Part shown: in pieces, positions 3,177-63,683 of the stretch
Layout of the letters: the number at the start of each line of letters is the position of its first letter
How positions within the stretch are numbered: the stretch's first letter is position 1
Source of the DNA: Bilabrum cf. latius
Lineage: Eukaryota
DNA: 64,000 bases
Assembly: GCA_965178125.1 (NCBI GenBank)
Contig: OZ237748.1
Coordinates: 1 to 64,000 of the forward strand
Direction of reading: 5' to 3'
Made by a program: the position numbers and the translations under genes
Notes under the pieces: generated by a model
The model's input: only the letters and a program-made list of their open reading frames with translations
Database searches by the model: none
What the model was told of the DNA's origin: nothing

Positions 3177-3229
3177 TTTCTTAAGGATTGATGATGGTTA
3201 AATTAATGAATTTGGATTGAGCCTAAGGC

Positions 3230-33500: not shown

Positions 33501-36500
33501 GTGGACCGCAGCCCCGAGGAGTGCATGCCCAGAGAGAGGTGCAAGACATTCGAGGGACAGCAGTACTGCAGGACCATCGCGGCGGGATGCTATCCCACTG
33601 CCGGTGGCTTCTTCATCGAGATCGATGGGGAGTCCTTCGGGCGATCGGGTGCGGATGTGCAGCTGGGCCCATACCAGTGTGAGCCGGTGGATCCGTTCGT
33701 GGACCCATTGAATGCTCAATCGCACAACAGGATCGTGTGTGAGGTCCCTCAGGGCTTCGGTGACGATCTGCCGCTGGTGGTGACGGTCGATGGACGGCGC
33801 AGCGACGACACGGAGGCTGTGACCCTTGCAGTGACAAGGCTGGACGAGCTTGTCCGCGACAAGCTGGCCCGCATTGCTGCTGATGAAGCCGAGCGGGAGA
33901 GGCTATAGCAGGAGGCGAGGGATGCACTCGCAACCGGTGCTTCGAGGGGTCTGGCAGGGCTAGACTCTGTGGAAGACCTGTTCGCAATGGGCTAGGTAAA
34001 GCCCAGCGCGCAGCTTGCCCTGGCCCGCGGGCTGCAGGGGTCTGCCTCGCAGGCTCGTCGCTTGGAAGTTGCCGGCTTGCCGCTGACCGTGGAGGAGGCC
34101 TTCGAGGCGGCGTACACCTTCCAGTTCGACCCGCCGTTCGTGGATGCTATCGTGTCTAACACGCCAGATGCACGCGGGGAGGACCTGGCCATCCGAGGGC
34201 TCAATTTTGGCTGGGAGAACAACCCAGTGGAGGTGTTCATCGGAGGGCAGGAGTGCCTCGAGGCCCAGTGGCAGAACGATGGCCTCATTCGATGCACCAA
34301 GCAACAGGACATAGTGGGACCTAAGAACGTGAGCGTGCTGGCTGCCAACCGAACCGAGCCATTTGTGTTCGAGGCGTGGGAGGAGCTGCTGGTGAGCGAG
34401 TGCCAGAGGGGCGTGTACGAGGGCATCAGGGGGGAGCTGTGCCTCCACTGCGAGGACGAGCACCCGGGCGCCAACTGCACCAACTCGCACATCCAAACGC
34501 ATGATCCGATCACGTCTCTACCCGGCTGGTGGCGCTTCAACCGCAGCCTGGATGACGCCGAGTGCCATCCGTTGAGGGTTTCTCCTGTGCGTGCCATCAA
34601 CGCCACGCTGGAGACTGGTGGGTGCCCCGTCTACAAGCCATGTGAGCCTGTGGAGGCGTGCTTGGGCGAGAACCTGTGCGCCATCGGGTATGAAGGGCCC
34701 AGGTGCTCGCAGTGCCTCGAGGGCAAGTATCATAGGGTCAATGGCGAGTGCGTTAAGTGCCCAGACAGGCCATGGCTCCAGTACGTGCTCATTGGCGTGG
34801 GCGCCATGTTCGCGGCTGGGTTCGGGTACATGCTCCGTTCCAAGGGCATCATCGATGTTAGCATCCTGGCAATCGTGGGCATTGACTATCTGCAGGTTCT
34901 GGCCATCTTTGCCTCCACGAGGGTCGAGTGGCCCAGCCTGCTGGAGGATGTGCTGGCCATCATGTCTGCCTTTAACCTGAACATCAACGTGCTCTTCGTG
35001 CCCGAGTGCATCGCACCTGGTATCGGGTTCGAGATTAAGTTTCTGGCCACTCTGGCCATGCCAGTGCTCGTGAGTGTGGTGTTCCTGGCGGTGGTGCTGG
35101 TGCGATACATGTACAAGCTGGCGTGCACGAACTACAAGGCTAAGCCCAAGGGATACCTGTGCTCCGATGCCAACGCAACCATCAGCGCCTTCATCGTACT
35201 GGCGCGGTTCGCCTACCTCTTCGTGACCATGATGGCGCTCACACCGGCCGCCTGCCTGCAGACCACGCCCCCGGATGGCAGGACGTACATGGACGGCATG
35301 ACGGACTACCCCTGCTGGGAGGCTGGCAGTCTGCAGGTAAAGCTCTTCCCTGTCGGCCTCGTTGCTTTCGGTATCTTCAGCATCGGCCTGCCCGTGTGGT
35401 GCTTCCTCTTCCTGAGGAAAAACGCAGCCCAGGTGAAGCAGGACCAGATCCTGCGAGCTGCATGCATCGGGAACGACCCGCAGACCAACAACAACATCGG
35501 ATTCCGCGAGAGGTTCTACCAGCTGTACTTCATGATGAAGCCGGGCAAGATCACGTGGCAGCTGGTCATCACCGCCCGCAAGTTCTTCATCGCCTTTGTG
35601 TCGCTCGTGGTGCGCACTTCGCCCTCGTACTAGCTGGCCCTGGTGCTGCTCGTGCTCTTCGCGGCCTACGTGCTGCACCTCAACCACTAGCCCTACATGA
35701 CCAGGGCCAACAAGCCCGATATCGTCAAGGAGCACCTGGCCAAGGTGCGTGGCGGAGACAAGGCTCACGTGAGCATCCAGCGCGAGATCGACCTCATCAC
35801 AGAACGCAAGGAGAAGAACAAGGTCGGTAAGCGAACCTCGGGCACCGGGTACATGGTGGCCCGCGAGCAAGAGATGCGGGAGCGCTCAGCGAACGAGTTT
35901 ATCGCCAGCAACTAGATCCTGACCACCATCGTGGACTACAACACGGTGGAGGCGGTGCTGCTGGGGTGCGGCGTGCTCGTGTGCTTGAGCGGGCTCATCT
36001 TCGCCTCGGAGAGGTTCTCGTCCTCGCAGCTGAGGGAGGTGTATAGGGCCGAGTACGACTCTCTGGCCTATGCCGTGCTCCTGATCATCTTCCTGTCGCT
36101 GACCTACTTCATGACCTGCGTGGTACTGGACCTCATGATCTCGCTGGCTCCCGATGCCACCAGGCGGTGCCTGAGCGTTTGCATCTCGGACAAGAAGAAG
36201 GCCATCGCCACCGCTAAGGCGAGCAAGATCCGCGCAGGGGATGGATCAGACCCTGAGAGCGGATTGTCGGACGCCGACAAGCTGCTACAGGCCAACAGGA
36301 AAGCATCCGACCGCAAGAACACCGCCAACCCGTTGCTTGTGACGGGTGGTGTGGTAGAGGGCGAGAGCAAGGCGCAAGCAGCTGCCAGGGCCGCCCGCTC
36401 CCTTGGCCAGGGGGCCATCCAGGACCTGCTGCAGGCCGTGCAGCCCCCAAGCAAGGAGGGTTGGCCGGCTGTGCGCGCGTACATGCAGAGCCTGATCGTG

Positions 36501-36893
36501 GCCAACGAGGAGATGAACAAGGAGGCTGAGGAGCGCAACACGGCCATGGCTCGAGAGGCGGCCATGAGCATGGGCGCGGCTGGTTCCAGCATGGGCCAGT
36601 AGGAGGCCCTGGCGTCTTTGAGGAACTTCCGGTCTTCACGCAAAATGCCAGTGGGGTCTTCGGGCAAAGGACAAGGGGCGCAGCGCAAGACCTTTGGCGC
36701 CCTCAGGTCGTCGGGTCTGTCCGCCAGTGGCAGTGGGGGCTCTCGCCGCAAGTCTGTCGCCAAGCTGGCAGAAGTGAAGACCATGGGCAAGAGCGCCAGT
36801 CGAAACAAACTCAAGCTCGCCCCACTGAGCGCCAGTGCCGCTGCTCCTGTCCAAGCCCCGGTGGAGGACAACTCGGGTTCTGATAGCAACTGA
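24591..36893 (+). CDS. ~4100-aa cell-surface protein: Cys-rich (GCC2/GCC3, ephrin-receptor-like) repeats + cadherin repeats + IPT/TIG repeats + multi-pass TM region; N-terminal exon(s) upstream unresolved
   Basis: Twelve ORF-track pieces (24681 to 36618) share one frame, with 17 TAG from 24591 and a TGA end. Motifs: CPAGYYCP repeats; LDFE/LDYE, DxD and DxNExP cadherin motifs; GxNFG/PGVG IPT motifs; DYLQVL and several hydrophobic helices. A likely intron acceptor TTTGCAG ends at 24590. Confidence 0.9.
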
Positions 36894-37804: not shown

Positions 37805-40393
37805 TCACTGCACCAGGGCTGCACGAAGCATGGTGCCTCCAAGCGGTAGAGCTCCAATGTCAATCTTGACGTTGAAGGATCCGTCTCCTAGCCAAGTTAT
37901 GCACGATGGGTCCACTGGAACCCAGCTTGCATCGCGTCTTGCATGCGTTGCAACTGGGTTAGGAGTCCATTGCTCCACCTTTACACCAACGGTGTGACTG
38001 GCACCGAGCACCCGACCCGCACCATGGACTTCGACCAGGACGGTTCGACCATTCCGTTGCACGCTTGCGCCGCTCGAGCCGTAAGTTAGGATTGGCACGA
38101 CCAAGTTTCGCTCCGCACTGCCGCTTCTGCCAGCTGAGGGCACCGTAAAGCAGTTTCCAAGCACCTGCCCCGTGGCCACACGGGGGCTTTCCCCTGAGGC
38201 AACTACGGCCTCGGAGTCAATAAATGAGCAGATGCTATGCGCAGTCGCAAGCTCTCTGCCTTTCATGGCGTCAAATCCAGGTGTCCACGGCGCGTACTGC
38301 TGCTGGTCATGCACAGAGAAATCAATTGCATGGTCATTATCGGGATACGGCGCCATGGGCCACACGCCCATGTATAGGTGTCGGTGGAAGAACTGTAGCG
38401 TTTCAGTAGCATTACCGCAGCACCCAGAGGACCCGCCAGAATAAACCCACAGGATGGCCGGGGATGCTGCTCCCAGCAGTCCCACCGCGTTGATCGCGTG
38501 AAACTCGCTGAAGGTTCCATCGAATGGCTTCATGAGGTCCAGGCGAGACACGCCTGTGTTCAGCAGCATCAGTCGCGGGCCTGCAGGCAGAGACCCCCCA
38601 CTGCATTGTGGGTCGTCGATTGCAGCTCTGATCCGGTCAGCAGTGTGCTGGAAAGAGACCCGCAAGGAGCGCACTGCCCGCCCCTGCACGGTGGACACGC
38701 CGTCGTCGGCATCTAGGTTATACTGATTAGTATGATCGCTACGGTCCACCACGATTCCATTGAAAGGCAGAGTGGAGGCCATGCCACCACCTGAATCAGG
38801 CACAGACAGGTTGCACGCATGCCGCAGCAGCTGGTCCTCGAGGAAATCCTCGTACACAGGCACAGCGGAGTCCAGCACGATCCCACCCTACCAGGTGCCC
38901 TGCAGTTCGCCAATGTGCAGCTTACCATCCCCAGATGCCCAGTTCCAGAGGGGGCCCCCCTGCAGCGAGGTCTCCAGGAAGCGGGATGCATTGCGCCAGT
39001 CGTCCGGGGCGGGCTTAGGGGGATTGGGCGAGGGCGAATACTTCACGTTGAGGCCGAACTCATTGAAGTTGAAATAGGACAGTTGCGTGATAGGCCCACC
39101 CTTTGAGTTGTCGCCCATGGCAGCATAGTACTCTGCGATTTGCCGCCTGCTGACGTTGGCAGGTGCTTGCGTCCCCTCAGGGTCGTTGTACCACTGCTCC
39201 TCGTCTCTCTCTACGGGGGGTAGAAACATGCCCATGTACGGGAAGAACCTCCCGCCAAGGTCCCACCCGACCCTGACCCCCTGATCCTAACCCACGGTGG
39301 CATTCGGCACCGCAAAGTAAGACGAGTACGTCCCCAGCCCGGACGCTCGCTGTGCCGCCTCTTGGCCACCGTGGGGCCTCCAGTATGCAGCATTCGAGGA
39401 ACCTGGTGATACTTCCCAACGAAGAGCGTCCCGTGGATCTGACCTGTGCGGGACGATGTCCCAAGAGAACGAGTAGCTTGCAGCTGGCGCTGAAGAGGAG
39501 CCAACCGGCGGGCATGACAGGCGAGCGGTGCGCTGCCTCAGCACGAATGAGGACGGGGCTAAGCCGGGCGGCGAATCGTCCTGTGGTTCGCGTCCTGGCG
39601 TTGCGCTGGTCAAGAAGTACACATCAAGCGGCTCGTTCGTCGGGTCCAAGTGAATTCCGAGGGCTGCATCGGTCGGGCCTGCCGACGAAGGAGGCAGGGA
39701 TAGCACAGCAATCGGGGCGACTATTCTGTCATGGATGCCATCTTCTGGGACCTCTACACCTAATCGATATTTGTCTGTCCACCAGCCGTCGTGTCCATCC
39801 GACGGGAGCAGCGGGTCTACGTAGAAGCTGCCCTTCGCTCCGTTGGATTCCCTATCCCACGGAGCCCACAGTCTCGGCATGCTTGCATAGTCGTTAGCTA
39901 ATACTGATAGTCCAACATCAATTGGTACGGTAAAGTATGCGCTGCCAGTCTCTGGAGAGCACTCCACAGCAGACACCTCCGATATGACTGTAAATGATTG
40001 GCGGGTGGCGTTCCACTCAATGATATCTTCGACACTAATGCGAGCAGACCCATAACTGAAAGATACATTGAATTCCTTCTGGACCTTGATAGACTTTGAC
40101 CTCGGAGATGCCACGCAAGAAACCGGGTGGACGTCTGAAGCGTTGTCACCGAGCCCGAGCGAGGCACCAAGCCCAAACGACTAGCTGCCGGGATAATCAA
40201 ATGGCTGTCCAATCGTAAAGTTTGCAACTCCAGGTCTGTCCGTCGAAAACTCTGGCGCAAGTACAACTGCTGCGGCAGTAGCTCCACAGTCTGAGGAGCC
40301 GGAGAGCTACAGGCTTCCGTCGGGACTGGACAGCTCCCAAGCAACAACCGACTCTATTAATAATGCCATCGGTAAGGTTGCCAAGCCAAGCAT
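37805..40393 (-). CDS. 862-aa secreted protein, uncharacterised; possibly carbohydrate-active (TAG read as Gln)
   Basis: Pieces 37805, 38888 and 39287 share a frame. The frame extends to ATG 40393 (MLGLATLPMALLIESVVA-WELSSPDGSL*LSG), with 4 TAG and a TGA end. It contains FFPYMGMFLPP, LSYFNFNEFG, GIVVDRSDH and PMAPYPDNDHAI. Confidence 0.8.
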
Positions 40394-40688
40394 TGCACGT
40401 GCCCGCTGTTTATGTGCAGTGGTAAACCGAACCGCAGATCTATTTGAAAGTACACGTTACTAAGTAGTACTACCCTTTCTCGCAGCGGGCGCCGGAGGGA
40501 ACGTGAACGCTGACGCTCCCCAGGGGGAAATGGGTCCCCAGGGTGGAGCTTAGGTGGTTTAGGCCATTGCAGCTGAAGCGTGAAGTCTGGTAGGTCCCGG
40601 GCCCTCGTTCCAGATGTTTCTTCGTGATAGCGTGCGTTTTTGAGTTGAGTCCACAAAATATCAGATCCCCCTTTCTCGCCCTCTTGAG

Positions 40689-41842: not shown

Positions 41843-44800
41843 TCATACCTATGCCTCCGCAGTGCTTACCGCCATCAGCAGAGCCACGCCCCGCACCACG
41901 ACGATGTGCAAGAGCAGCATCCCAGTCGCAAACCCCTCGCTCCCCGCCTCGAAGCCCATCTGCCTCTCTGCCGCCGTGGCCTGGAAATCGAGCGCCGTAG
42001 TGTGCAGCCGCCTGAAGTGGTGCAGCTGCAGCAGCTCGTTGGCCCACCGGCTGGCGCTCAGCACCCCCACGAGAGGGTCCGCCAAGCCTTCCCCAAACAG
42101 CTCTCGCTGCCCACGGAGCGTGGGAAAGAAACCCGCCAGTGCCAGTGTCATGATCATGAAGGCTGTGGAGGCGGTCTTGGCGGCGGAAGAGGGACGAAAG
42201 GTCCACCAGAGCGCCTGTCCCAGCCCGTCCATGTGCAGCAGCAGCAACAACCATACCGTAAAGGTCTCCTGGTACTCGTTCAGCTGACGCTCCTGCATCG
42301 TCACGAACGGGATAGTCGTGGCGACGGCCAGGAGCAGCACCCGCAGGAGCCCGAGAGCCGATTTAGAGCAGTAGTAAGCAGCTGCTGCTCTCTGCCTAGC
42401 AGCTCCCAGCGACCTCATCTCTCTTTGGAACCACCCCAGCTCGCCCTCAAACAGCGCCAACCCGCTGCCCAGCCCCTGGAACTGCACCACCACGAACGCG
42501 AGCAGGATCAAGAATGTCCTCGGCTCTCCCAAGAACTGGTCTGCCCCCGCTGCCACAAAGAGAGCCGTCAGCAGGATTACAGAGGCCATCATGACACCTG
42601 CGGGTACCAGCAGATCCGCCGCGATGTGCCTGGAAGCCTGCATCACTGCCCTCGACATCATGGCTCGGCACAGCGTGCAAGAGTGAACGGGCCTCCTGCG
42701 GGGCAGGTCCCGTAGGTAGGCTGCCTGGGACGGTGTGACGAGCGCGAGGGCTGCAGCGGTACTTGCATCTTGCTCGGCGTGATACTTCTTTGGGTGTGAG
42801 GCCGAATGCGGTGGGAGCCAGGCGACTGGGCCCATGGCGCGGCCGAATGCCGCCACTGCGGCTGCCCTTGGCAGCAGGGGCAGCATGGATGCACGTGAAG
42901 CGTCTGCCACGTTCTTTTGTTTTCTCGCCCTTGCTCTCAACTGCTCCCGATGACCCCCCGCTCTACCACCACTCGTGCTGGCGCCGTCACTGGCCTCATC
43001 ATCGATCAGCTCCTCCTCCTCGTACTCGTCCTCGCACACAGCCCGCAGGCAGCAGCTGCACGCCACCACTGCACACGCCGCCAGGTCAGCCAGCCCCATC
43101 CTCTGCATGAAGGACCGCATGCAGGACCCCGGGCGCGCCAGCTCGATGGGAGAGTAAGGCATGAGCATGACCCACGCCGGTCTGAGCCCTTTGAGCAGCA
43201 GCAGAGACAGGGGCAGGAGAGCGGCAGGCAGCGTGGTGCGCGACTCCTTGTTGAAGTATGTGAAGTCCTGGTTCAAGTCGCGGGTGCCCATGCCAGCCAC
43301 GGTGCCCACTAGAAGCAGCCCCAACAGCTAGACGGCGGTCAGGAGCACGTCCCATTGCCAGGGCAGCCAGGAAGGTGCCAGCAGCAGTACCCTGAAGACA
43401 TCAAGGATGGCAATGAAGACAAAGAGAGGCGTCGACAGATTGCAGTAGAAGACGAGTTGCGTCTGGCTGGGGCAGCAATCAGGGGGTGCCATGGGCTCGG
43501 GCTCGAAGGGTCCTTGCGGTGCCCGTGTCACGTTGGGATACAGAGTCAGATCTAGGCTGCCCCTGTCCTCCCCCGGTGCACCTGCCCCCAGGTTTGCCGC
43601 CAGTCCAATGATGGCCACTAGCAGGATGGACGCCGCTACGCCTGCCTGCAGCAGGTCAAGTCGGAACCTCATCCACTGGTCATCCAGCACCTTGAGCAGC
43701 AGGTCCAAGCAAGCCCACCGCCGAAGATCAGCCACTGCCCTGTCCACGTCAGCGCTGTCCTGTCTTGAAGTGGCCCCGTGATGGGAAGATGCATTCGATG
43801 AGGACGGTGTGACAGAGGAGGAGGAGGAGGCAGACATGCCGCTCATGGTGCGGCCTGGCGTCGTGGCTGGGGCTCCTGCGAAGGTGACCGACCGGCCGCC
43901 TCTGTCCTCAGATGCAGCGTGCTCTACACTCGGCAAGTTAACTGCAGTAGATGTGCCACCGTCATGTGGTTGGCCTTCGCGTCTTGTAGACTTGATGGAC
44001 AGGCCACCGGTGTCCTGCGCATGCATCTGCCCGTTCTTCCGTTCTGCAGATTCTAAATCCATGACCATCGATGCCGCACGGGAGGGCACCCCAGAGGTGC
44101 TAGCTGCCTGCCTTCTCTCCAACGTACGTCGCCTTCTCGCCCCCCGCCTCTTCCGGATGGCAGGTATGCCCAGGCCACTGGCCCAGGGCAGGTTCAGGTT
44201 CGTCCTCCTGCCCATGCCAGCGCTCATTAGGTGAGCGTGCAGCATGCGGCCAGTGGCGCTGGATCGACGAGATGATGAAGAACCAGGAGATACGGATCCA
44301 CTCGTCACACTGCCGCCAGGGCCACGATGGTCTCCAGCGCCTTTAGTGCCCCTCCGCACGGGATGCTCCTGGCCCCCGCCACTGTGCAAAAGCGAAGACG
44401 TTCTGGGCTCCACGGGGGAAGTCACTGCCCGACTCAGCCGCTCCATGTGACCCACTGGCACACCAGCCGTCTCGTCGCCGCCTAGACTACTAGCTGGCAC
44501 CTCTGCAGCGGCGTGTGGTAATGCGAGCGACTGCTGCGCCGATCCAGCACCCTCGCCACTTCCTTCTCGCGAGTGTCGCTGCTCGACACGTGCACTGAGC
44601 ACCTCGAGGGCAGCCAGCAGTCCGAAAGGCCCCTGCACCCCGCGCTGCACCCTCCGGAGGCTGCACCTGCGCTCCTTCGCCACTGCCTGCAGCCCGCGCA
44701 TCATGCGGCGGGATGTGCTGCTCGCGTCATCTGAGCCCTCCGCCAACTTCTGGGCTGCGGTCGACCGCTGCCTGCCTTCTTTTCGCATGTCTTGAGACAG

Positions 44801-47800
44801 CACCCCCCTGCCTCCCCTCCCCCCACTCTAAACCCCGCTCTGCTTCTGCTCCTGCCCCCCCTCATCCTCTTCCTCACCTACCCCCTCCCCATCCAGCATC
44901 GCCCACTCCATCAGCGACTGACCAACACCGTGCATGCTCTGGTGCACCCCTACCCCCGACTCACTGCCCCCCCTGCTGCTCATGTCCTCCGCGCCTGGAC
45001 CGTCCAACGATGGGAACGTAGACCCGGCACCGGCAGCCTGCGCCTGCGCGTTCCATCCGTGCATCTGACCTGCTCTGCCAGTTTGACCACCCTCAGATTC
45101 TCCGCTCCCAGCGGCCCCGATCGAGCCATCTCCCCGATGCACCACCTTGGGCGAAGTGATAGCATCCACCGCCGCGGCCGCTTTAGCCATGGCCACGGTG
45201 TCCAAACACGCCTGCATGTGCCTCAGCCCAAGGTGGCGCTGCAGTCGACTGCACCCGTCGGTCAGCAGGAGCACATAGGCTAGAGACCTGGTGCGCCGTG
45301 GCCCCAGTGCCCTTGAGACGACCTCCGCCAGCTCCCACTCGAGAGCTGCCCTCGATGGATCTCTCCTACTCGCGCGGTCCAGCCGTCTCCTGACTCTCTC
45401 TACCTCCTGGCTGGCCTCCAGGGCGCGGGCCAGCACCTCGGCCCTGACCTGCACCCTTTGCCACGTGTCCGCCCACTCGGCCCCCGTGCGGTGGGGGAAC
45501 AAGCTGCTCGTCGCAGTCCCCGTGGACACGTCCATGTACACGTCCACCCTGCTGCTGCCCTCGGGGAAATCGAAGCCCAAGTTGCTCAGAAAACGCTTCG
45601 TGTCGCTGAACGGGCCGTCGTATACCACCCGGCCCCCGCGTACCAGCAGCACCAGGTGGTCGCACACGTCTGCTATCTCCACCCTGGGCTGGTGCAGCAC
45701 CGCACACACGGTCAGGCCCTCCTTCCTGGCTAGCTTGGCCAGGTACCGCATGACCTGCAGCGACGTGGACGCATCCAGTCCGCTCGTGATCTCGTCGCAG
45801 AAGAGCACCCTGGGTCTGGCCACCAGCTCCACGCCGATGGAGACACGCTTACGCTCGCCGCCGCTGAGCCTCTGCCCCGCGGTGTCTTCCGCACCCACCA
45901 GCGACTCTGCTCTCTGCAGCACCTGCATCCTAAGCAGCGTCGTGTACCCGTGCTTGAGCACGCCTCTGACCCTCTCCTCCTCCATGTGGGCCCCCTGCCT
46001 GAGGCTGGGCCAGCAGGGGCAGCAGCACCAGAGGCAGGACTCCCAGGCGGTACGATCGTCTTGCTCGTTCCCCCCTACTGCCCCGCTGAGGGCAATTGAG
46101 CTGGGCGTGGCCGAGGAAGCCCGGCCCTTGCTCCTCTGGCTCTGCCTCGCCCCTGCTGCTCCTGTATCGAGGTGCTGGGAGGAGGGTCGGTGCAGGGGGG
46201 CAGCGGGTGCTGTGGCTGCCCTTCGCTCAATTGGCTCCGGAGCGGGCCTGCTTGGTGACTGCGGGTCTTGCTCAATAGAGCGGCGGTTCGCACCTTTGGA
46301 GTCATTTTGTGCACTGCTGCCATCGCCGGCGGGGTCTTGCCCTGCATCGCTCGATCCTTTCCTATCTGCGTCATCGGTGTCATCGAGTCCCACCCTCAGG
46401 CCCTGCCCTGCATCGCTCGATCCTTTCCTATCTGCGTCATCAGGGTCATCGAGTCCCACCCTCAGGATACCTGACGTGGCAAGCGCCTCCGCAGGTGTGA
46501 CGTCACTTAGTAGCACGTCGCTTTGAGGCACGAACGCTGACTAGTCCCGGAATGTGGCAGAGTCGCAGTCCTCCCGACCTGCTTTGCCAAGAGCCATGGA
46601 AGCGTCCATCCACCGCCCGTGCACACCCACCACGCCCTCGATGTCCGCGTAGGCCGCGGCACGGCCTGCGAGTGCATTCAGCAGCGTGGTTTTACCCGCT
46701 CCGGACTCTCCCAGGATCAGGGTCACCTTGCCTGCTGGCACCGTGCAGCTCACGTCGCTCAGTATGCGGGCGTTCTTGTTCCCCTTGGCGCTCACAGTGG
46801 CGCCCCTCAGCACGAACCCGATCCCGTCAGGGGCACCCGATGGACCCCTGCCGTGGCGATGGTACCTGCCGGGCTTTCTACTGTGTGTGGAGGGCCTCTT
46901 TCCTGTCCCACTGATCCTGCGGGGTGTTTGCGCAGCAGCAGCACCGGGAGACCCCTGGCCTGCATGTCTCAATATGCCTCTGGATGTGTCCTGCATCTCC
47001 CCTCGATTCTGAGATGCCTGCCTGCTCGGGTCCCCTTGTTGCTACTGGCTCTATCCCTGGCCGTCCGTCTGATCAGTGCCATCGATCTCACCAGCACCTT
47101 TGCTATCGTTCGCGCAATCTGCCGCAAGTGCGCTGGCGCTCGTGCTTGTGCTTGCAGATTTGCCGCCAGCGGAACCATCGCTACTGCTGCTGATGCTACT
47201 TTTACTACGCTCGGAGCCGTTACTATTCTCGTCCGTATAGTCTTCCATCGCCCCGTGCAGCCGCGCGCTGGCTCTTGCTCCTCCTGACGACTTGCCGTCG
47301 CTCCCGTCCACCTCCCCGGCCCTTGCCGCAGCTTCGAGGATTGCATCGTCTTTGTCTTCGTCATCGCGATCGACTTGCTCCTGCTCCCGACCTTCATCCT
47401 GGCCCTGGTCCTGCTCCTGATCGAAACCGTTGGGTGCGTCTCCACGCGCTCTTCTCCCCTGCAGATAGCTCCCACCGCCGCCCGTAGCACTCGTCACACC
47501 GCCTCCTACACGCACCCTCACCGAGTCATACCCAGCGATAGATCCTTGCCCAGAGCCAGTGTCTGCATCGCCGCCCTGACTATCCGCGTCATTCCCACTG
47601 GACCCACCCATTCCGATCGAGCCGGAGCCGGAGGCATCCTCCAATCTTGCACCGGCCCCGGAGCGATCACCTGCAGCCCCGGACTGCCCATCATCATCCT
47701 CGTCCTCCTCCTCCTCTTCACTTCCATCATCTTTTTCACAACCCCCTCGCTCGTCATCTGCTCCCTGCCTCTCCGTCTCCCTCTCCGTCTCCGTCTCCAA

Positions 47801-48598
47801 GCCGGGTCCCTGTCCCATGCCACCAGCGGCTCCCATCCCACTGGGCTGCACCCCCCCATCCAACACTCTCCCTACCCCCGGGTCATCTCCCCCCACGTCA
47901 TATCTGCCAGTCGACACCTCCGTCTCTGTCCACTCCGAGGATGCCTTGGACCTCGCTGCCTCGCTCTCGCTCTCGGCCTATTCTCGCAGCCTCTTCAGGC
48001 GGATCCTCGCTATCTTAGGGAGATAGATGGGACGCAGCCGCCGCACGACTACCGCGACTGCCTACGAGACACGAAGGTGCCTCTCATCCCGACAGCCGGC
48101 GAAGCCTGCCACTCCCGCCACCATGACGCCCAGGAATGCGACCACTGCCAGAGCCGTCGCTTCGCTTCTGGGCACGGAGCTGCCCTCGGGGCAAAGCGCG
48201 TAGGGTTCGCATGCGAGGGGCTCGGAGCTTCCAAACGGGCAAAAATACCCACCAGGACACCTAAAAATGTCCGTGGAGGTCGGGCAGAACGCTCCGGGGG
48301 GACAGACGACGTCGTCCACTGGTGGAATCTCGAGCGTGTCCGTTCCTGGGCAGTACAACCCCTTGCTCCAGCATGGCATGCAGTCAATTGCAAATGGTAG
48401 AATCGGTAGGCCGGCTAGTGACCGATTAGGATTGATCAGCGGGTCAAACTCGTACCCCACCCCCCCAAAGACAACTCGTCGCGGCGTGGACCCAGGTTCG
48501 CATGCCGCTTGGCTCCGTGCGATTCCAGGCAGCAGAACTACAACCGAGCCAAAAACCAATATCCAGGCGGCTCTGCTTTCGGCAAAGTGCATACGCAC
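41843..48598 (-). CDS. ~2250-aa ABCG/White-type half transporter with signal peptide, Cys-rich ectodomain and long low-complexity insertions (TAG read as Gln)
   Basis: Six pieces share one frame, with 8 TAG. Motifs: Walker A GESGAGKTT, Q-loop FVPQSD, signature LSGGERKR, Walker B VLFCDE, H-loop VLHQPR, then a C-terminal TMD. The exact 3' end is uncertain because GTATGAG after the last TAG could be a splice donor. Confidence 0.88.
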
Positions 48599-48728
48599 GA
48601 GGTGTTTGACTTATTTCTATCCAGTCGACGTCGACCTGCAACTCCGAATCTTTTGAGCAGATCCTAAATCCATCTGCTTGTCAGTCATCTCTCTTGAATG
48701 CGGAAGTGGAGCCTTGGTACTACAAAGT

Positions 48729-50837
48729 ATGGCTCGAGCTCGCCACTATGGTCTGGGGGAGATTTCTGAGGAGTTTGCAAGCAAGGGGTGTATTCTCAGT
48801 GTTCCTGTTGTGCCAAGAGACGACGCTGCACGTCTTCTGTAGGCGGCCCATGTAGGAGGGGCCGGTAGCTTGCCCAGTGGAAATGACCGTTTCAAGCAGC
48901 ACCTCGTGGTTCCATGCTTTGCGCGCTCGGTGCGAGCTCTTGCGCTGATACAAGCTACCCGAGCCTGCGTTGCGCCCAGCGGCGAGCCGCTGCTAGCTTG
49001 GAGCTCAGATTTTAACATTAAGCAACCGAAATCCGGTGGGTTTTACAGCTTGCACTAGGACGGGAAGTACGCAGGCCTGCATCCGGCTGAGCAGGTGCTC
49101 ACGGCGTGGCTCGCTCTCTCTGACGTGTCCAGACAGGAGGCCGGCCCGCTCGTGTATTGCCCCGGGTCTCACAAGCTGGGCATGCTGGAGCACGAGGAGA
49201 CAATCGATACCAAGCGCAAGCTCGGGTACAGCGAGACTCCAGTCCCGGCGGAATCTGCAGCCGGGCCGACAAGTGGCGCGTCCGCTCCGGCCCCATCAGA
49301 CCGAGCGGCTGGCACATCAGCCAACCTGAACCTGCTGAGCAAAGGACAGACCATCGTGCCAAGAACGGAGGAGGAAGCAGCCGCCCTCGCGTCCAATGAT
49401 GTGCATTGCACGCTGGCACCGGGGGAGGCCTGCCTGCACTCGTTTCTGCTCGCCCACAGGAGCGGGCCCAACCTGCTGGACTATCCCAGGGTGGGGCTGG
49501 CGGTGAGGTATATGGGCGGGGGCGTGATGCGGCACACGGGGGGCACTTGCAAGAAGAGGTACATGGGCGGGGGCGTGATGCGGCACACGGGGGGCACTTG
49601 CAAGAAGAGGTACATGGGCGGGGGCGTGATGCGGCACACGGGGGGCACTTGCAAGAAGAGGTACATGGGCGGGGGCGTGATGCGGCACACGGGGGGCCCT
49701 TGCAAGAAGACAGCAGAGGCAAGTAAAGAATACCCAGAGGAGCATAGCGAGGGTGAGGGTGAGGGTGATGGTCACGTTGCCAGTACATGCCCAGAAGCAG
49801 CCACTCTAGTGTGGGACAGCGGGAGGGTGGTGGGCGATCCCATCTTGCATGCGCTGGCAGTAGCAGCTGGGAGCATACCCACAGGTGGCAGCGGTGCCTT
49901 GGGTGGGGCTGCTTGCGATAGCGATGGAAGTCGAGGCGCAGCAGCAGCAGGAGCAGGGAGCTTAAGTTGTGGTGGGGCTGACTCATCCTGTGAGGACACT
50001 GCCGGCTTTGCCTCGGCCTTGGCATCTTACAGTGCATTGCACCCTAGGCAGAGGGAGGCCAGGCAGCTCGCGGTGCTGGGGAGGAGGATACTGAGGGCTG
50101 TCCGTGATGGCGGTGTCACGAGTGATGGAGATGATGCGATGAGTGAGACTGATGCAGAAGCCGGTGTGGATTTAGATGAAGGCAGGATGCACCCAGCGGA
50201 TGAGGCCAGGGTGCTGGGCGCTTTGTAGGCCCTGCAGTCTCGCCTGCACTTTTTGTTGGAGCCCTGTCCGTGGGAGGTATCAGGGGAGGTGGATCGTGAC
50301 ATCATCTTCATCGCGGGGGATGCTGGCGCGGGTGAGTCTAGCAAGCGAGATGAAACTACGTCTGAAGTGGCGGAGGCAGGTGGAGATGGACGAGATGATG
50401 GGCAAGGGGGCACAGAGGCGGAGGCAGGTGGAGATGGACGAGATGATGGGCAAGGGGGCACAGAGGCGGAGGCAGGTGGAGATGGACGAGATGATGGGCA
50501 AGGGGGCACAGAGGCGGAGGCAGGTGGAGATGGACGAGATGATGGGCAAGGGGGCACAGAGGCGGAGGCAGGTGGAGATGGACGAGATGATGGGCAAGGG
50601 GGCACAGAGGCGGAGGCAGGTGGAGATGGACGAGATGATGGGCAAGGGGGCACAGAGGCGGAGGCAGGTGGAGATGGACGAGATGATGGGCAAGGGGGCA
50701 CAGAGGCGGAGACATAGGCGAAAGTAGAGGCGGGCAGTCGTGTGCGGGCTGACCTAGAGCAGGCGAGGACCCGTGTGAGAGAGGCAACGCTACGGCTAGA
50801 GAACATGAATTACTTCCGGTTTGAGGGCGGTCGATGA
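48729..50837 (+). CDS. PhyH-family (phytanoyl-CoA dioxygenase-like) Fe(II)/2-oxoglutarate dioxygenase, 702 aa with repetitive C-terminal part (TAG read as Gln)
   Basis: ATG at 48729. Motifs: FNIKQPK..YSLH*DG (HQD), LTAWLALSD, GPLVYCPGSH, LAPGEACLH...HRSGPN...R. There are 4 TAG and a TGA at 50835. Confidence 0.88.
49506..49709. repeat. In-frame 51-bp coding tandem repeat x4 (RYMGGGVMRHTGGTCKK)
   Basis: Visible in both the DNA and the ORF track. Confidence 0.95.
50370..50711. repeat. In-frame 48-bp coding tandem repeat x7 (AEAGGDGRDDGQGGTE)
   Basis: Identical units start at 50370, 50418 and so on. Confidence 0.95.
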
Positions 50838-51002: not shown

Positions 51003-52643
51003 TCACTCGTCCTGGGACTCGTGTATATAAGTGAGCGCCTTCTCCAAGCTGGGCAACGGGTGTCCCTCAGGGGGGGCGTCAGAAGACGTCCACCATAGGC
51101 CATGGAATGTAGCCTGCTGCCTCAGGGATACGCCTTGTTCTACCTGCAACACCCTCGCCGTGGGCCACAGGTAGGACGTGTCGATGCTCCACAGGTACGC
51201 CCCGCTGTCCATGTCTACGAGAGCAAGATCTCCCGTGCGGTCGCACTCCTCCCCCGTGATGACGAGTGCGCACTTCTGGGCCTTGCCCCCGGTTTCCGAC
51301 TTCCAGTCTCCGCGATATCCCGACGCCACTAGGTTGCAGTCGTCCTGTAGAGTCAGACGGGTCGAGAAGGCGCCCTAGCGTTTCCCGACCGACTGCCCCA
51401 TGGGCAGCATCTGATCGTCCCACAGTGTGTACCACACGCGGGTAGATCGCTTAGCAAGCGCCTTGGGATCGCAGCGACGTGGAGCCATCCCTTCGATGGC
51501 CGCCTGCATCGCCGCCGTCTTGCGACCATTGCCGAAGGTCGTGTCGTCGTCAGGACTATCCAGGTCCGCAGACCCTGCAGACCACACGATGCCACCTCCC
51601 TTCTGGGACAGGACGGCGTCCCCGTCCCCCTGCAGACGAAGGGTGTCTGCACCCGGGTCCATCAGCGATGCAGGCACCCGCCAGATGTACTGCCCGGAGG
51701 CGCTGTCCACGATGGCCAGGTCGCCCTTGGTGTCGCACCCGTCCCCTGTGATGACGAGTGCGCACTTCCCCTCGGTACCCTTTCCCTTCGTGTTGGTCGC
51801 AAACCGCGCCTTGCCCCCTCGGTACACCATCAGGTTGCAGTCTCCCTGCATGCGCAGCTCGACCCCCTCCCCCTCGCCCGCCCTCAAGGCGGCCCCGGCT
51901 TGCAGCACCTGCCCCGGAGACAGCACATCGCCGTCGGTCACTTGGTGGTATGACGATTGCAAGGCCCCTGCATCGCACTGCAGGTTGTGCACATCCTCCC
52001 GCACTTGCTGATCAAAGTGGAACTTACCGATCCCCTGTGCGTGGCCCCCGGTCTCGGTGCTCCACAGCAGGTGCCCCCCTTCCTGAAGGAGAGCGGCATC
52101 GCCGTCCCTCTGGACCAAAAATGTGTCCACTTCTGGTGTGAAGATAGAGGATTGCACCCGCCAGATGTACCTGCCCGTGTCCGTGTCGATGATGGTCAGG
52201 TCTCCCTGGGTGCTGCACGATGCATCCGTCAAGACCAGCGCGCAATTGGCCTGCTTCTAGTCTCTACCAAAGCCGAAAATTTCCGACTTGTCCTTGCCAG
52301 AGATTACCAACTTGCAGTTATCCTGCACATACACCTTCGTCGAATTCTTGGACAAGGCGTTAACCAGCGGAGCCTTGGCGGAGTGTAGAATCTCGCCTTT
52401 CCGGAGCCTGTCGCCCTCTGCCGGCTTCCTCGCTGCCAAGGCGCTGACATCGCAGGAGTATGTGTAAACGTTGTCATAGTTGGGGTGGAGCGCATTGCTA
52501 TGGTGCGTGCTGCTGGCGCTGCCCGAGGCCGACGACATAGAGCCAGTGCTGCGAAGGTGCTGCTGGCCTGTTGCTCGTCGCCCGTGCACAGTGACCACCG
52601 AACAGGCGGCTAAAGCCAGCAAAATGGAAACGATGGATTGCAT
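51003..52643 (-). CDS. 546-aa secreted protein with about 3 bulb-type (GNA-like) lectin domains (TAG read as Gln)
   Basis: Signal peptide, then QxDxNxVxY-like motifs VQDNCKLVI, MQGDCNLMVY, LQDDCNLVA and LQGDGDAVL. Three pieces share a frame, are joined by 2 TAG and end in TGA. Confidence 0.82.
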
Positions 52644-52828
52644 CTCTACAAATGTCAGGTTGATGAGCCAGTTGGATCCCTTCGCACTGATGTAGAAGGC
52701 CCCAGGGAAGTGGGGGTGCCAGCGAAGACTCCGATGTCACACGGTGCCACAGACCCCCGCGAGGGGGGTGTACGGCCCCTGGCAGTGGCGCCGCAGCGGA
52801 ACTTTGGGCTGTGGCGGAGAGCGCCCCC

Positions 52829-54452: not shown

Positions 54453-55518
54453 AGTAAGCGCCTACTATAGCAGCATTTGGCAACGACATGATGCCGCCGA
54501 TCCTCACCTTCCTTACCCGACAACGCCCGGCATCGCTTCGCAGTGGCAAGTGCAGGGGGCGAATCAATTCAATTGTTGAAGACGATAGTACTAGGGGATC
54601 TAGCATCCGGCAAGTCGTGCTTTTTCCAGAGAGTGCTGGTGAGGTTACACACCAATGCGTCCAGGCCGCTCTTTGCACTGCAAACTAGCACTGCTGGCAG
54701 TCTAGATCTACCGGGATTGCTGCTCAGCGACAAATTCATTGCTCGCCTGCTCGATTTAAGTTGCAGGGGTGCGATTTTCCGAAGCAGAGTCCACCGACGA
54801 TAGGGATAGACTGCGGCCGCGGGACTGTCCAAGTCGACGGTCAAGCTCTCAATGTGGCCTTGTGGGATACAAATGGTAAGATTTAAGAAGAGCTTCCGTG
54901 CATGCGGGCAATCAAAGCCGCATGGTATCTGTGGAGCTTCGCATAGCTCCTACATGTCTCAAAGATGCGGACGAGTAGATCTACTGGGCCTTCAAGAAGC
55001 TTACGCAGGCCTGGAGGGATCATCGAGGATTCGCAAGGCGTGAGAGACTCAGCAGTATTTGCACGCCGTATTGTATGATCTGCGTATGTTCCGATTAGTA
55101 TGCATCAGGTTGTAATGCTTTGTTTTGAGCCAGCAGACACATGCGCGGCTCCCGCTGCGTCTTCATTGTCTTCGACCTGGCCTCGAGAGATTCATTCAGG
55201 ACGGTCCGATACTTCGTTGAAGAAGCCAGGGAGACTCTGGGAGACACCATCCCGATCGCCATGATTGGTACCAAGTCGGACCTCGTGGATAGGCGGGAGG
55301 TGCCAAGGGAAGAAGCCGAACGGAAAGCCAAAGAGCTCGGGGTTCTATACTACGAGGTGAGCTCGAAGACGGGGGAGGGGGTTGATGAGGCGGTGGAGGG
55401 GCTGCTTGAAGAGGCGCTGACAGACGAGGAGCGGGCAAAGGAGCGTCATTCCACAGAGACATCGCCGGACCTAGGAGACTAGGACAAGGCGCCATCATCG
55501 GGGTGCATCACAAGCTGA
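54453..55518 (+). CDS. Divergent Rab-like small GTPase, copy 1 (intron-containing)
   Basis: Exons encode KTIVLGDLASGKS (G1), PTIGID...LWDTN (G2/G3), IGTKSDL (G4) and EVSSKTG (G5). Reading through TAG 55480 gives a C-terminal CITS followed by TGA. The middle exon boundaries are not fully resolved. Confidence 0.8.
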
Positions 55519-59039: not shown

Positions 59040-62000
59040 TTACAAGCCCCCCATGACCTCTGTCGCCCCGCTTGCATCCAGAGCCGCCTGCAGCTCACGG
59101 GCCAATTCCTCCAGCAGCACTGTCCTGGTGAGCAGCCTGGACTAGCGCTGGAGCCAGACCGGCATGTCGGCCTTGCCCCTGTACACAGGGATATGGGCCG
59201 TGCTGCCAGTCTGTAATTCTACCCTTTGGTCCTGTAGCACCCACAAGGCAGGCCCATCCTGCGACGATTCGGGAGCGTTGATCTAGGACCGCTGGCACCG
59301 CAGCGCCCCCTGCACCTGTGCCTCTGCATCTGCTGCCGATGGCACCTATATCTCACCACGATTCCTCACACCCCCTTCGTCCTGGCTTTCTCCACCTGTC
59401 GATCCTGTCTCCACCAGCGCGCCAATCTGCCCCGCACTGGCCCCCACCGCAGGGTACTCACTTCCGATGGCCTCCATGGTTGGCAGAGAGAGACCTAGCC
59501 GCTGCCTAGCCTTTAGCAGCGCTACCAGCAGGGCGCGACACAACCCACCATCCTCTCCATCACTCGTCACACTTGAAGTTCCACGCCGTGTAGCCCCTGG
59601 ATCGTCACCCCACAGCAGTGCCTTCAGCAATCGCGCCCCTTCCCCCCGTTTAGCCAACACCTCCACCAATCCATCAACCAATCCATCCTCGCCACCCTTC
59701 GCCTCCACCTCAGTGCCTGCCTCCATTCCCGCCCCTGCCTCCATCTCTGCTGCTCGAGACGCCACCCGCCTCACCAGCGCCCCCGCCACTCCCGCGGTCC
59801 AAATGAGCACCGGCAGGCTCCCCTGGTCCAAGGCACCCTGCAGCACTGCCTCCAGCGCCCGCTGCAGCCTGAGCAAAAGGGCAGTCGGCCGCACCTGCAG
59901 GTAGATACTATGATCCAAGGAGTCGCCCTTGGCCTTGCCGCTGCCATCGCCGAGGCTCCCACTTCTCATCACCTGCACAGCGTACGAGGGCAGCAGCGCC
60001 ACCTGCTTGGATGCCTCCTGCAGGGATGCGATCGCGCCCTGGAGGTGTGACGAGTGAGCACGATCACCACTGGGGCTCTCATCTTCGCCATCGTTCCCCT
60101 CCACGGGTGCATCACCCTGCAGCGCGGACAGCGGCAGCATGGCCCGGCCCCTGGGCACGGCGATCCAACCGGCATGCAGCCCGCCTGCATCACCATCACC
60201 ATCACCATCACCCTCGTCCTCGTCCTACCCCACTTTGCCAGCGGCACTCTCTTCTTTCCCATCAGCTGCACCGCCACCTCCTCGCACCGCCTTCGCCTCG
60301 AACAGCTGAGCGTCCACCACCGTATCCCCGGACTGCAGCCAGGCCCGGATCAGGTGCAGGGCGCACACAGCCGCTGTCCCCGCCTTTGCACCCGCCCTGC
60401 CCTCCCCCACACCCGCACCACCCAGTGCAGGCGCACCCCCCACACCCCCAACACCTTCGAGCACCCCGATGGCTAGATCGAGCGGTCCTCCTGTGGCCGC
60501 CAGACCTAGCACGCCCAGCCGACGGATGGCAACAGCTCCTTGCAGCTGGGCCCCTGCCCCTGCTCCCGCCCCGCTGGCAGTGCACAGCGGCACTGGGCGC
60601 GCCCGCACTACCCCACCAGGCCCCACCTCCATCGTCATCGCCATCTCATCCCCGTCCCCGGACCCACTCGTCACACTGCCAATACCCGCTGCCCCGCACG
60701 CCGCCTCCATGAGCTCGAGCTGAGCATGCACCCACACGCAGGCAGACGCGGCGGCGGCTTCCCCCCTCTTTCCCACAGAGGCCCAGTGACCCCAGCATGA
60801 CCCGCGCCCTGATGGCCTATCACCCCCTGCACCAATCCCTGCCCCTGACCTCTCCCCACCCCCCAGCCAGCAGCTCCTCATCAGCCGCATCAGGTCCCAC
60901 GCAGCCGCACCCGCGCCCAGTGCACCACCCCCACGCCGAGCAGCCCCGTGCGGCTGCCCAATGGCCCGCCCCCATCCCTCCGGCCACTGCACCGCGCCCC
61001 CAAGCGACACATCCAGCCCCTTTCCCTCTCCCCCTGCATCCGCTCCTGCCCCCCCGCCCGCCCTCGAGGCCCCACCGGAGCCGACTGCAGCGTCGCCCCC
61101 GGATGCCCGACCAAGCAGCGCGCCCAGCACCTGCACCTGCACCCGCATCGCGAAGCTGGCCCTAGCCCATGCCCCTGCCCCCTCCTACCACTCCCTCAGT
61201 CGCCGCATGAATCGAACAGGAGGAAGCAACCCCCCCTCAGGTGACGGCACCCCGAGGGGGAGGGACGCAAAGGCGCCCGCCGCCCCCACCGCCACCAGCC
61301 AGGCAAGGGGCGGCTGCTGGCCCACCTTGATCCCACTCGTCACACCTTCTGACGCGAGCGGTCTCCCTCTGCCGTTGTCCCCCATGACCCCATCGCCCCC
61401 AGGGGTCGAACCCGCCCCCACGGTGGGGTCACGTTTCTCCAGGCCGAACGCGTCCCCCCACAGCAGACGAGCTACCACCACCCTGCCGCCCCCATGCAGC
61501 AGGGCACGCATCGCACGCACGCACACGGCACCCACGCCCGCGTCCAGCCCCAGCGCACTCTCGAGCCCGTCCTGCGCCAGTGCCCCCACCGGCACCGCCC
61601 TCTCTCTCTGCGCCTGCATGCCCCCTGCCCCCTGCCCACCCGATCCATGCATCCCCTCCTCGTCCTCGTCCTCGTCCTCGCCATCAGACCCCCCCGCCCC
61701 TACACCCCCCTCACCCGTGCCGTAGCCACCCCCCCCTATCTCCCCCTCCCAATCCTCTCTCACCTCGTCCGTGCCAGTCCACAGCAGCCTGCCCAGCAGA
61801 TCCACGGCGGAGAAATCGCTGAACGTGCCCTGGTCGGCCTTCACCAGCCTCGTCTGGAGCAGCGCCCGCACTGCCTGTGCCCCGCCGCTTTCAACCCCAC
61901 CCGACACACCCGACGCACTCGCTCTCCCGCTCTCACTCTCGCTTCCAAGGCACGCCAGCTCCCAAAACTCGCCCAGGGTCCGCGCAGTTGCCGCCGCTGA

Positions 62001-63683
62001 CCCCGCCATCAGCATAGCCAAGGCCTCCCTCCGCAGTGCATTCGGGAGGTAGCCTGGGTCATCCCACACCGGCTTGAATTCGTCCTCCTACCCAGCTGCA
62101 TTTGGGCCCATGCCACTTCCACCTCCAACACCAACGCCGTCCTCTTCTTCTTCTTCTTCTTCCTCTTCCTGCTTCGCCCCGATGAAGGACAGCAGGGAGT
62201 CCACCACGCCACCTCCTATCTCTTTGCTGGAACTAGAGTCACCTCCCGACTCATCGGCGGCGGCACCGGCACTGGCACTGCTCGTGCGATGCCCGTCCAG
62301 AGCGCCCGCAGCGACCTGCAAAGGGGCGCTCAATCCACCGGTGGACTCCCCCGCCCCTTTGGCCACGTCCTCCGCCGTCATACCCTCGGGCAGGCAGCCC
62401 ATCGCCGCAACCGCAGCCCCCTGGCCCCCGTGCCGCAGCTCGTCACGCAGGAACGGCCCGCTGCCCAGCGTGCCAGGGAGACTGGCCGAAGAGCTCGATG
62501 TCAGCGATGCTGATGCTAATGCTAATGATGGCAACGCACCCGCAGATCCACGGTCACCTTTGGTCGATCGTGTCTCGCCAGCTGGCTCCTCCCCTTCCCT
62601 CTCCTCTTCCACCTCCTCATGCTGCCAGTCGCTGGCCAATCTGGCCCTCCCCTGCCCCTTGGCGTCCAGAAACCTCCTCCGCAGCACGCCAAGCATCTGC
62701 ACCGGTGCCCTGACCGCATCGGGATGTGCCAGCATGTGAGCCAGGGGTGGCAAAGGAGTGTCCGCCCCTGCTCCCATCACCATCCCTGTCCCTTCCCCTT
62801 CCCCTGCCCCCGCCTCCTCCCCAAGGAGAGCCTCCAAACTCACGCCCTCCCCAAGCTGGCATAGCCCAGCATCCGCCGCGGCCCGCTCCGCCGCCAGCTG
62901 CAGTGCCATGGCCACAGTCCCACACCGTGCCATGCCCGCGGGAGAATCCGCCTGGCATGCCATACCCACTCCAATGGACCATTCAGGCGATCGACTGGCC
63001 GCCCATGCGCCCCGCCACGGGCCTAGATCCACTGGGATATCCAAGGATGCGGACGAGGACGAGGACGAGGACGAGGATGGGGCGCCTGCAGCACCACCAG
63101 CACTTGGGGCCCCCCGAGCTATCACATCTCCTGGATCGGTGTGACGAGCAATATCTTGGACCCCGGCGGCTGCATCGATCGCTCGCGAGTCCTGCTCTTC
63201 TCGCATGGCCCGCACATCGACAGGCACCCCCAGCCACATGCGACCGGCCCGAGGCCCATGCGAGCGCAGCCAGATGCCCGCCGCGGCTTCCTCGGCGAGA
63301 GGGGCTGCGGCCTAGGCCCACAGCCGCAGCAAGCCCGATGAAGCGGCTGAATTTACGGACTTGTGACCGGCCTTGCGGCTGCCTGCTATTCCAATTTGGA
63401 CCTGCTTGCTCATGGCTGTCTGCAGCTTCGCGAGACCTCTAGCGAAACGTCGCTCTCGCTCCTTTCGTCGAGATGGGCTCCAGAACTCGACCGGCCTCCG
63501 TGGAATGGTGTAGGTTACAGAAATAGGAATCATTGGTAGCTTATGGTCAGTCTTGTCGTGCTACACGTCTCCGACTGGATTCGGCTCGCTGCATTCCGCT
63601 TGGCTGCCGTCCTCTGTTCGTAACGCGTCCAAGTCCAGCGAGTTGATGGCGAACTACATCCATGAAGAAACAGTGGACGACAT
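59040..63683 (-). CDS. 1547-aa Gly/Ala-rich protein of unknown function (TAG read as Gln)
   Basis: Pieces 63312, 62088, 61185, 60225 and 59346 share a frame. The frame is open from ATG 63683 to TAA at 59040-59042, with 9 TAG and no internal TAA/TGA. Confidence 0.8.

Follow-up and report, generated by a model that had tools for sequence, protein, structure and literature searches.

UAG as a probable glutamine codon in the nuclear genome of Bilabrum cf. latius, examined from an in-frame TAG at the H-Q-D motif of a PhyH-family gene

The nuclear genome of Bilabrum cf. latius very probably reads UAG as glutamine and terminates translation with UAA and UGA (we place the probability of this code at roughly 0.94), and UGA is, on the gene ends compared below, its main stop codon. 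A code with UAG as Gln and with UAA and UGA as stops is the table-15 form. The assembly comprises 48.6 Mb in 111 contigs and contains TTAGGG-type arrays, and the window (that is, the whole stretch of 64,000 nucleotides analysed here) is the start of one of these contigs, C14. A gene in the window that encodes a PhyH-family Fe(II)/2-oxoglutarate dioxygenase has an in-frame TAG in the middle of its H-Q-D motif (Table 1); judged from its sequence, the gene is intact and this TAG supplies the Gln of the motif.

Table 1. Features of the window, with positions counted from its first letter.
Feature	Position	Strand	Observations
1601-codon frame, 20 TAG, no Pfam match, TGA end	5447..10252	+	
4112-codon frame, cadherin and TIG domains, hydrophobic C-terminal region, 17 TAG, no internal TAA/TGA, TGA end	24555..36893	+	
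883-codon frame, 4 TAG, no Pfam match, TGA end	37805..40456	-	
2255-codon ABC transporter frame, 8 TAG, TGA end; last TAG two codons before the stop	41843..48610	-	
PhyH-family Fe(II)/2-oxoglutarate dioxygenase gene, apparently intronless, TGA stop	48729..50837	+	Pfam PF05721, fold model
H109-Q110-D111 motif	49053..49061	+	columns invariant (51-row alignment); aligns to HQD of ThoJ and EvdO2
TAG codon read as Gln, middle residue of H-Q-D	49056..49058	+	Q in 80/81 homologues; identical in three runs
Distal His243 (HRSGPN)	49455..49457	+	invariant (51-row alignment)
577-codon frame, 2 TAG, weak B_lectin match below cut-off, TGA end	51003..52736	-	
Last exon of Rab-like GTPase; TAG 11 codons before C-terminal CITS and TGA	55129..55518	+	
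1555-codon frame, 9 TAG, no Pfam match, TAA end	59040..63707	-	

Positions 49050-49064 read TTGCACTAGGACGGG, that is, L-H-TAG-D-G, with the TAG at 49056-49058. From the first ATG (48729, the inferred start codon) to the TGA at 50835-50837, the gene has no in-frame TAA or TGA and has TAG at 48840, 49056, 50226 and 50715. With X placed at every TAG, the protein matches the Pfam PhyH model PF05721 with an E value of 5e-16 and 60 bits (cut-off 22). His109 and Asp111, which we take to be the first two iron ligands, and His243, presumably the third, do not vary across an alignment of 51 rows, 50 of which were chosen from 81 homologues. In an alignment of all 81 homologues returned, the column of the TAG is Gln in 80, and its His and Asp neighbours are likewise conserved in 80; the 81st homologue is a fragment that ends short of the motif. 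The proposal of the first-pass annotation that this TAG occupies the Gln of H-Q-D is thus borne out, as close homologues carry Gln and no other residue and the genome-wide dynein and Ras tests described below agree, and the downstream motifs that it had described as intact (TAWLALSD, PGSH and HRSGPN) are all present in the read-through frame. Its statement that HxD is mostly HQD in PhyH proteins holds by homologue count for this subfamily and is to be confined to it: among relatives in the PDB, ThoJ and EvdO2 have HQD, but SnoK has HDD, so that the middle residue of H-x-D is no required ligand. The site had also been called the best single one for identifying the amino acid and its column is indeed that strongly Gln, yet a lone site can mislead, given that the domain has another TAG (48840), whose column is Glu in 68 of the 81 homologues; a single site is therefore insufficient to fix the amino acid.

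When residues 1-268 are modelled with Gln in place of the TAG of the motif, the predicted fold has a mean pLDDT of 84.9 and matches Fe/2OG dioxygenases, with ThoJ first (E 4e-15) and proline hydroxylase H11 also among them. The H-x-D...H motif and the fold are thus common to this gene and to known PF05721 members (ThoJ 6zyk/6zyl, EvdO2 and proline hydroxylase H11), from which it differs by a long, low-complexity tail with in-frame tandem repeats of 51 bp and 48 bp. Homologues of the domain share at most about 36% identity over most of its length, except for a near-identical fragment and one hit that is 50% identical. Every homologue that bears an organism name comes from a bacterium, and the 50%-identical sequence is far closer than these; the gene has a bacterial-looking origin, and its transfer into this lineage is possible.

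If the code were standard, the PhyH gene would be a nonsense pseudogene, or else its TAG would have to come from a mis-assembly or be the acceptor site of an intron, which we regard as extremely improbable. The sequence CTAG/G does match the acceptor consensus, one candidate for a frame-keeping donor lies at 48930, and the tail of the gene is laden with repeats. However, an intron from 48930 would remove the invariant Lys98 and His109, and any intron with its acceptor at the AG of 49056 would take the His ligand away; the gene is collinear with its closest distinct homologue (P0008) 5' of the TAG, and in three public runs, which come from two studies, contigs (X1, 48723-49487; X2, 49038-49290; X3, 46412-49500) cross the codon without a joint, a gap or a differing letter. 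This disposes of the concern, raised by the first-pass annotation, that exon structure might remove it. One of the two studies is possibly the source of the assembly itself, X1 and X2 are RNA by guess only, and coverage gaps were left out as evidence. The standard code would also break the eRF1 gene and many dynein, Rab and proteasome genes, nearly always at TAG.

The remainder of the window points in the same direction as the PhyH gene. Its long frames (4112, 2255, 1601 and 1555 codons) open when TAG is read through, and reading through TAA opens none; the cadherin/TIG and ABC-transporter frames have domains on both sides of their TAGs, and the TAG of the Rab-like exon sits before CITS, so that termination there would cost the prenylation signal. 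Statistics on ORFs and their ends come from one region of contig C14. A 240-kb part of this contig contains 7 ORFs of 1000 codons or more when the standard code is applied; the figure rises to 26 if TAG is taken as sense, stays at 7 for TAA and is 23 for TGA, and the longest ORF reaches 4112 codons with TAG as sense versus 1961 with TGA as sense. The same region has forty ORFs of at least 500 codons, which, as the scan requires, all close with TGA or TAA (33 and 7, respectively), and TAG accounts for 10.1% of their Gln-type codons. The coding score is positive past TAG (0.147, n = 42) and negative past TAA or TGA (-0.163, n = 13). As 37 of these 40 ORFs contain TAG, annotation under the standard code would truncate most long genes.

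Several other features of the window were noted. The cadherin and IPT/TIG protein at 24555-36893 is a giant one encoded in more than 4100 codons with no intron; the 5' end of its gene probably lies in upstream exons. Three tandem Rab-like paralogues occupy 55129-58945, two with CAAX-like ends (CITS and CVVS) and the middle one ending in WSTVS without a cysteine. For 38283-40403, X1 and X2 contain a second version of the 883-codon gene, about 5% diverged and at higher depth, which is either a paralogue or a version from another strain. Between 3441 and 22242, tandem repeats of 326, 155, 339 and 53 bases are interleaved with five internal (CCCTAA)n arrays, and two similar frames lie at 11713 and 22390; this region is either a subtelomere with interstitial telomere repeats or a mis-assembly. 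Positions 95-3440 (3346 bases) are 100% identical to Croceimicrobium (Bacteroidota; locus L294), and the identity stops exactly where the telomere-type repeat begins (3441), which is probably a chimeric join in the assembly; genes there (an ECF sigma factor and others) use TAG as a true stop, and the host code is therefore not applicable to them.

To assign the amino acid across many sites, 38 stretches of 19 dynein heavy-chain genes (91,036 codons, 403 of them TAG) were mapped by BLASTP on 149 homologues, a set that leaves out one 99%-identical row, and the mapping recovered the standard meaning for all 61 sense codons. At columns conserved to at least 70%, TAG fell on Gln in 19 of 26 cases (Glu 5, Val 1, Tyr 1), beside 253 of 307 for CAG and 26 of 32 for CAA as controls; at columns conserved to at least 90%, it fell on Gln in 11 of 12 (Val 1). 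The log-likelihood summed over 225 dynein TAG columns is +133 for Gln, -94 for Glu and -123 for Lys. TAG use climbs as GC3 drops (Spearman -0.81 across the 38 stretches, two per gene). In the scenario that we propose, TAG would have spread to become a third, minor codon for Gln, now at about 10% of Gln codons, mainly where codon bias is weak. At the switch-II Gln of Ras-family proteins, which we take to be catalytic, the codon is CAG in 9, TAG in 8 and CAA in 4 of the 21 loci (out of 30) in which the site was found. In L113, a metagenome locus whose eRF1 gene shows 92% protein and 82% nucleotide identity, one codon that is CAG here is TAG, a swap that makes the code probably common to a small clade. 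Separately, the database entries P0007, P0482 and P0483 of this lineage begin after a TAG.

These counts bear on whether UAG is mostly Gln but ambiguous, being at times Glu or Tyr through loose charging or a stop near some gene ends, which we consider distinctly unlikely. Glu is more frequent at TAG columns than at CAG columns (5 Glu to 19 Gln versus 11 to 253; Fisher P = 0.006), but CAA, the other rare Gln codon, does not differ significantly from TAG in this respect (2 to 26; P = 0.23), and the Glu excess may reflect a relaxation of constraint at sites that use rare codons. Among the 26 dynein columns, just one has Tyr as its conserved residue, and the eight GTPases with TAG at the catalytic Gln also speak for a single meaning. 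With regard to gene ends, the last 10 codons of the 40 ORFs contain 4 TAG in 400 codons, versus about 1.7 expected (P of about 0.1, calculated by hand), and no depletion of TAG just before stops was found in these ORFs of C14; given this slight excess, UAG might still occasionally terminate.

Gene ends that can be anchored by conserved C-termini place termination at UGA and UAA. Of 30 Ras-family loci, 20 end in a cysteine prenylation motif, with TGA as the next codon in 16 and TAA in 4, and 12 true C-termini of dynein (of 13 examined; the end at L099 was dropped) are followed by TGA in 9 cases and TAA in 3. TAG is consequently found at 0 of 32 anchored C-termini, versus 25 for TGA and 7 for TAA, which, within the limits of a small sample, counts against both a residual stop function and an otherwise ambiguous UAG. 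Inside genes the pattern is reversed: 28 dynein Pfam matches contain 20 TAG, no TAA and no TGA, TAG is the only internal stop codon in proteasome Pfam matches, and 65 Ras Pfam matches contain three stops other than TAG (not each inspected). A context-dependent code in which one codon is both stop and sense (as in Condylostoma or Blastocrithidia) was rejected on the absence of TAG from the 32 anchored ends and of depletion near stops, and a TGA-sense reading on its shorter longest ORF and the absence of TGA inside dynein Pfam matches. Reading through TAA adds no long ORFs, and TAA stands at anchored gene ends; readings with TAA, or with TAA and TAG, as sense were likewise set aside.

The last of these corresponds to NCBI table 6, in which UAA and UAG both encode Gln and TAA would be just rare in a GC-rich genome. 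Table 6 is described as the commonest variant code in eukaryotes in the relevant part of PMC11687900, and our tRNA inventory is partial (63 of 780 candidates scored); nevertheless, TAA stands at the exact conserved ends of the eRF1 gene, 3 dynein genes and 4 prenylated GTPases, none of the dynein matches contains it, no long ORF is gained by its read-through, and no tRNA-UUA occurs among 14 anticodon-loop pattern matches, so that we give this code next to no credence. Editing of UAG to CAG in the mRNA (U to C) under a standard code would produce the same Gln pattern in a genomic comparison, and no run is recorded as RNA, by which it might be directly excluded. We still rate it as very improbable, in view of the dedicated tRNA-CUA gene, the absence of TAG from every anchored gene end and the X1 and X2 contigs (again RNA by guess), which are unchanged across the codon. 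Reassignment of UAG alone thus remains the preferred reading.

Such a reassignment would be served by a nuclear tRNA with the anticodon CUA, found by both Rfam and ARAGORN at G000:C23:907607-907679 with 69.8 bits (the Rfam search scored 63 of 780 candidates and returned 48 matches). The candidate folds into a cloverleaf (z -2.7), is followed 3' by a run of T and has Rab and proteasome genes at most 20 kb away. It is single-copy in that a DNA search matched only itself, which fits an ambiguous UAG somewhat better than a robust one. The 14 matches of the anticodon-loop pattern (blind to intron-bearing tRNAs) consist of this tRNA, two mitochondrial tRNAs and 11 sequences not recognised as tRNAs by ARAGORN; a wider pattern search gave 47 matches versus 16 in a control, with no further CUA or UUA tRNA among them, and a stricter one found tRNA-Gln(UUG) only. 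A CUA anticodon reads UAG and not UAA, according to the relevant passages of PMC5304391 and PMC11687900. In the mechanism that we propose, the cytosolic GlnRS would load the tRNA with Gln, and C34 would let this tRNA decode UAG but not UAA. The Glx-tRNA synthetase anticodon-binding domain occurs in two genes, and L292 is read as GlnRS from its own sequence alone. ARAGORN labels CUA tRNAs as pyrrolysine tRNAs by default; the many genes with TAG at ordinary Gln positions speak against a pyrrolysine system.

Over 73 positions, tRNA-CUA is identical to tRNA-Tyr at 50, to Gln(UUG) at 48, and to Gln(CUG) and Glu(CUC) at 44 each, in a comparison set without Leu, His and most Ser tRNAs. Its acceptor pairs are as in tRNA-Tyr at 6 of 7 (none of the 20 other tRNA types in the comparison exceeds 3), its D arm is nearest to Glu or Gln, its T arm is nearest to Ser(GCU), and it shares G73 with Gln(UUG). 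On account of the acceptor match, we tentatively suggest that it arose from tRNA-Tyr through a one-base anticodon change, or from recombination of Tyr with Gln or Glu, followed by an identity switch to Gln via the discriminator base and the second base pair; we hold this origin to be rather doubtful, as another parent is possible given the composition of the set. The eukaryotic Tyr determinants are C1:G72, U35 and A73 in the part of PMC9976931 relied on here, and tRNA-CUA has the first two of these, a point in favour of occasional Tyr at UAG, but it has G73 in place of the A73 that TyrRS needs (PMC9976931), and this base may keep TyrRS off the tRNA. Should a Tyr-derived tRNA-CUA be confirmed, it would represent a natural tRNA identity switch behind a nuclear code change in a stramenopile; one would then expect small amounts of Tyr or Glu at UAG positions, and relatives with tRNAs of intermediate type.

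The eRF1 gene (L032) has four exons with GT-AG introns, two in-frame TAGs and a TAA end. In a comparison with 95 full-length homologues, for which a gap-free offset served to infer the human numbering, one of the TAGs falls on a column that is Gln in 89 of 94 and the other on a column that is Leu in 89 of 95 and Gln in 6. The protein retains G31-T32-S33, E55, NIKS, S70, Y125, C127 and F131; as T32, E55, S70 and Y125 are kept, the known switches do not explain a loss of UAG recognition. Its substitutions include A27T, G29A, N30D, I35V, S60V, E107Q, F117P and K130H, each present in only 0-2 homologues, together with L69Q (in 6) and N129S (in 4). L69 and N129 have been tied to the reading of a third-position G, and N30A alone was without effect in yeast, in the portion of PMC4381064 concerned; L69Q and N129S were nonetheless dropped as diagnostic, because both also occur in sister sequences, which may well have the standard code. 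Changes near GTS, TASNIKS and YxCxxxF may blunt the recognition of UAG by eRF1, which in our proposed mechanism would thereby have been lost or weakened; alternatively, it is possible that tRNA-CUA merely outcompetes eRF1. Within metagenome eRF1 loci, 77 of 80 have no stop inside the match; two with in-frame TAG (L169 and L173) also have in-frame TAA and are ciliate-like, and were set aside.

The best eRF1 match with an organism name is Cafeteria roenbergensis (69%), and in a maximum-likelihood tree of this one gene (47 rows) the protein and a close relative join a clade with Cafeteria (support 99/89). The sister group in this tree consists of P0091, P0093, P0094 and P0095, one of which is labelled Symbiodinium sp. 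KB8 yet groups with Cafeteria, and three inspected members have both L69Q and N129S. In a Cox1 search, the sole match with an organism name among the 120 listed is an oomycete (78%). The mitochondrion has TGA as Trp with a tRNA-UCA, and TGA is also Trp in the mitochondria of Cafeteria and Cafileria (PMC6972860 and PMC6723347, in the passages on the mitochondrial code). From the eRF1 match and tree and from this mitochondrial code and tRNA, the organism, a single-celled marine flagellate, is likely a bicosoecid stramenopile, a placement that depends on one gene tree. Its mitochondrial contig (G000:C111, L050-L053; 38.4 kb) has 10 tRNA genes by ARAGORN, which suggests heavy import of tRNAs, and TAA ends all 22 of its plus-strand ORFs of at least 150 codons. 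There are two 18S rRNA types that are 77-83% alike, one of 1700 bases in tandem on a large contig (G000:C12, array L056) and one of 1802 bases on an 18-kb contig (G000:C95, L055 and L110-L111); the latter is probably from another eukaryote in the sample.

For bicosoecids and other stramenopiles, a full-text literature search that included few subscription papers and no supplements found no nuclear stop reassignment, and the assembly metadata might already record the code. The available parts of the Cafeteria genome paper note a non-standard code for the mitochondrion only, and those of PMC11412368, PMC10120064 and bioRxiv 10.64898/2026.08.26.747235 contain nothing on a variant code in stramenopiles. 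If our reading is true, it represents an independent origin of UAG-only reassignment, in stramenopiles. In addition, a long-contig genome with a candidate tRNA-CUA, a full eRF1 gene and a GlnRS-like gene is absent from the UAG = Gln cases as described in the papers cited below, and the presence of all three in one genome makes both the presumed UAG blindness of eRF1 and the presumed charging of tRNA-CUA by GlnRS directly testable.

The code itself is already of a known kind, and it is the lineage, the candidate tRNA and the UGA-dominant stops that look new. UAA and UAG are nearly always reassigned together, and the few uncoupled nuclear codes listed in the relevant part of PMC11687900 belong to ciliates, one fornicate, one rhizarian and one green alga; the retention of UAA as a stop is what makes the present code unusual, a point that the first-pass annotation does not make at this site. 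Among organisms with UAR as Gln (NCBI table 6: ciliates, hexamitins, ulvophytes, Streblomastix and Amoeboaphelidium; PMC11687900, as far as it treats them), UAG is Gln as here, whereas UAA is Gln there and a stop here. In the rhizarian exLh and three TARA phyllopharyngean MAGs (Leu) and in Scotinosphaera (Ser), UAG is uncoupled from UAA as here but encodes another amino acid, and the tRNA-CUA of two of the Leu MAGs clearly came from tRNA-Leu, whereas the one found here is without a clear parent among the tRNAs compared (PMC11687900 and PMC5304391, in the parts on these lineages). UAG = Gln with UAA as a stop is known from Iotanema spirale, Hartmannula sinica, Trochilia petrani and Protocruzia tuzeti (PMC11687900, same part). 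In the sections of PMC5304391 and PMC9161772 on I. spirale, its nuclear genes have UAG as Gln and UAA and UGA as stops, as here; it is, however, a fornicate represented by a transcriptome only, with a tRNA-CUA predicted and not found, in contrast to the genomic tRNA-CUA of the present organism, its eRF1 has T32G where T32 is intact here, and its dominant stop is UAA instead of UGA. The three ciliates share the code and widespread in-frame UAG, with TAG as a minor Gln codon, yet UAG makes up 18.5-31.8% of the Gln codons in UAG = Gln ciliates versus about 10% here, and a suppressor tRNA is given as undetected in H. sinica and T. petrani, for which we have a candidate (PMC11687900, in its passages on these species). 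Finally, UAA accounts for 86.9-98.3% of gene ends in five recoded phyllopharyngean genomes (PMC11687900, as far as the portion cited goes) and for only 7 of the 32 anchored ends here, and the UGA-dominant stops of this GC-rich genome thus break the phyllopharyngean pattern of UAA dominance.
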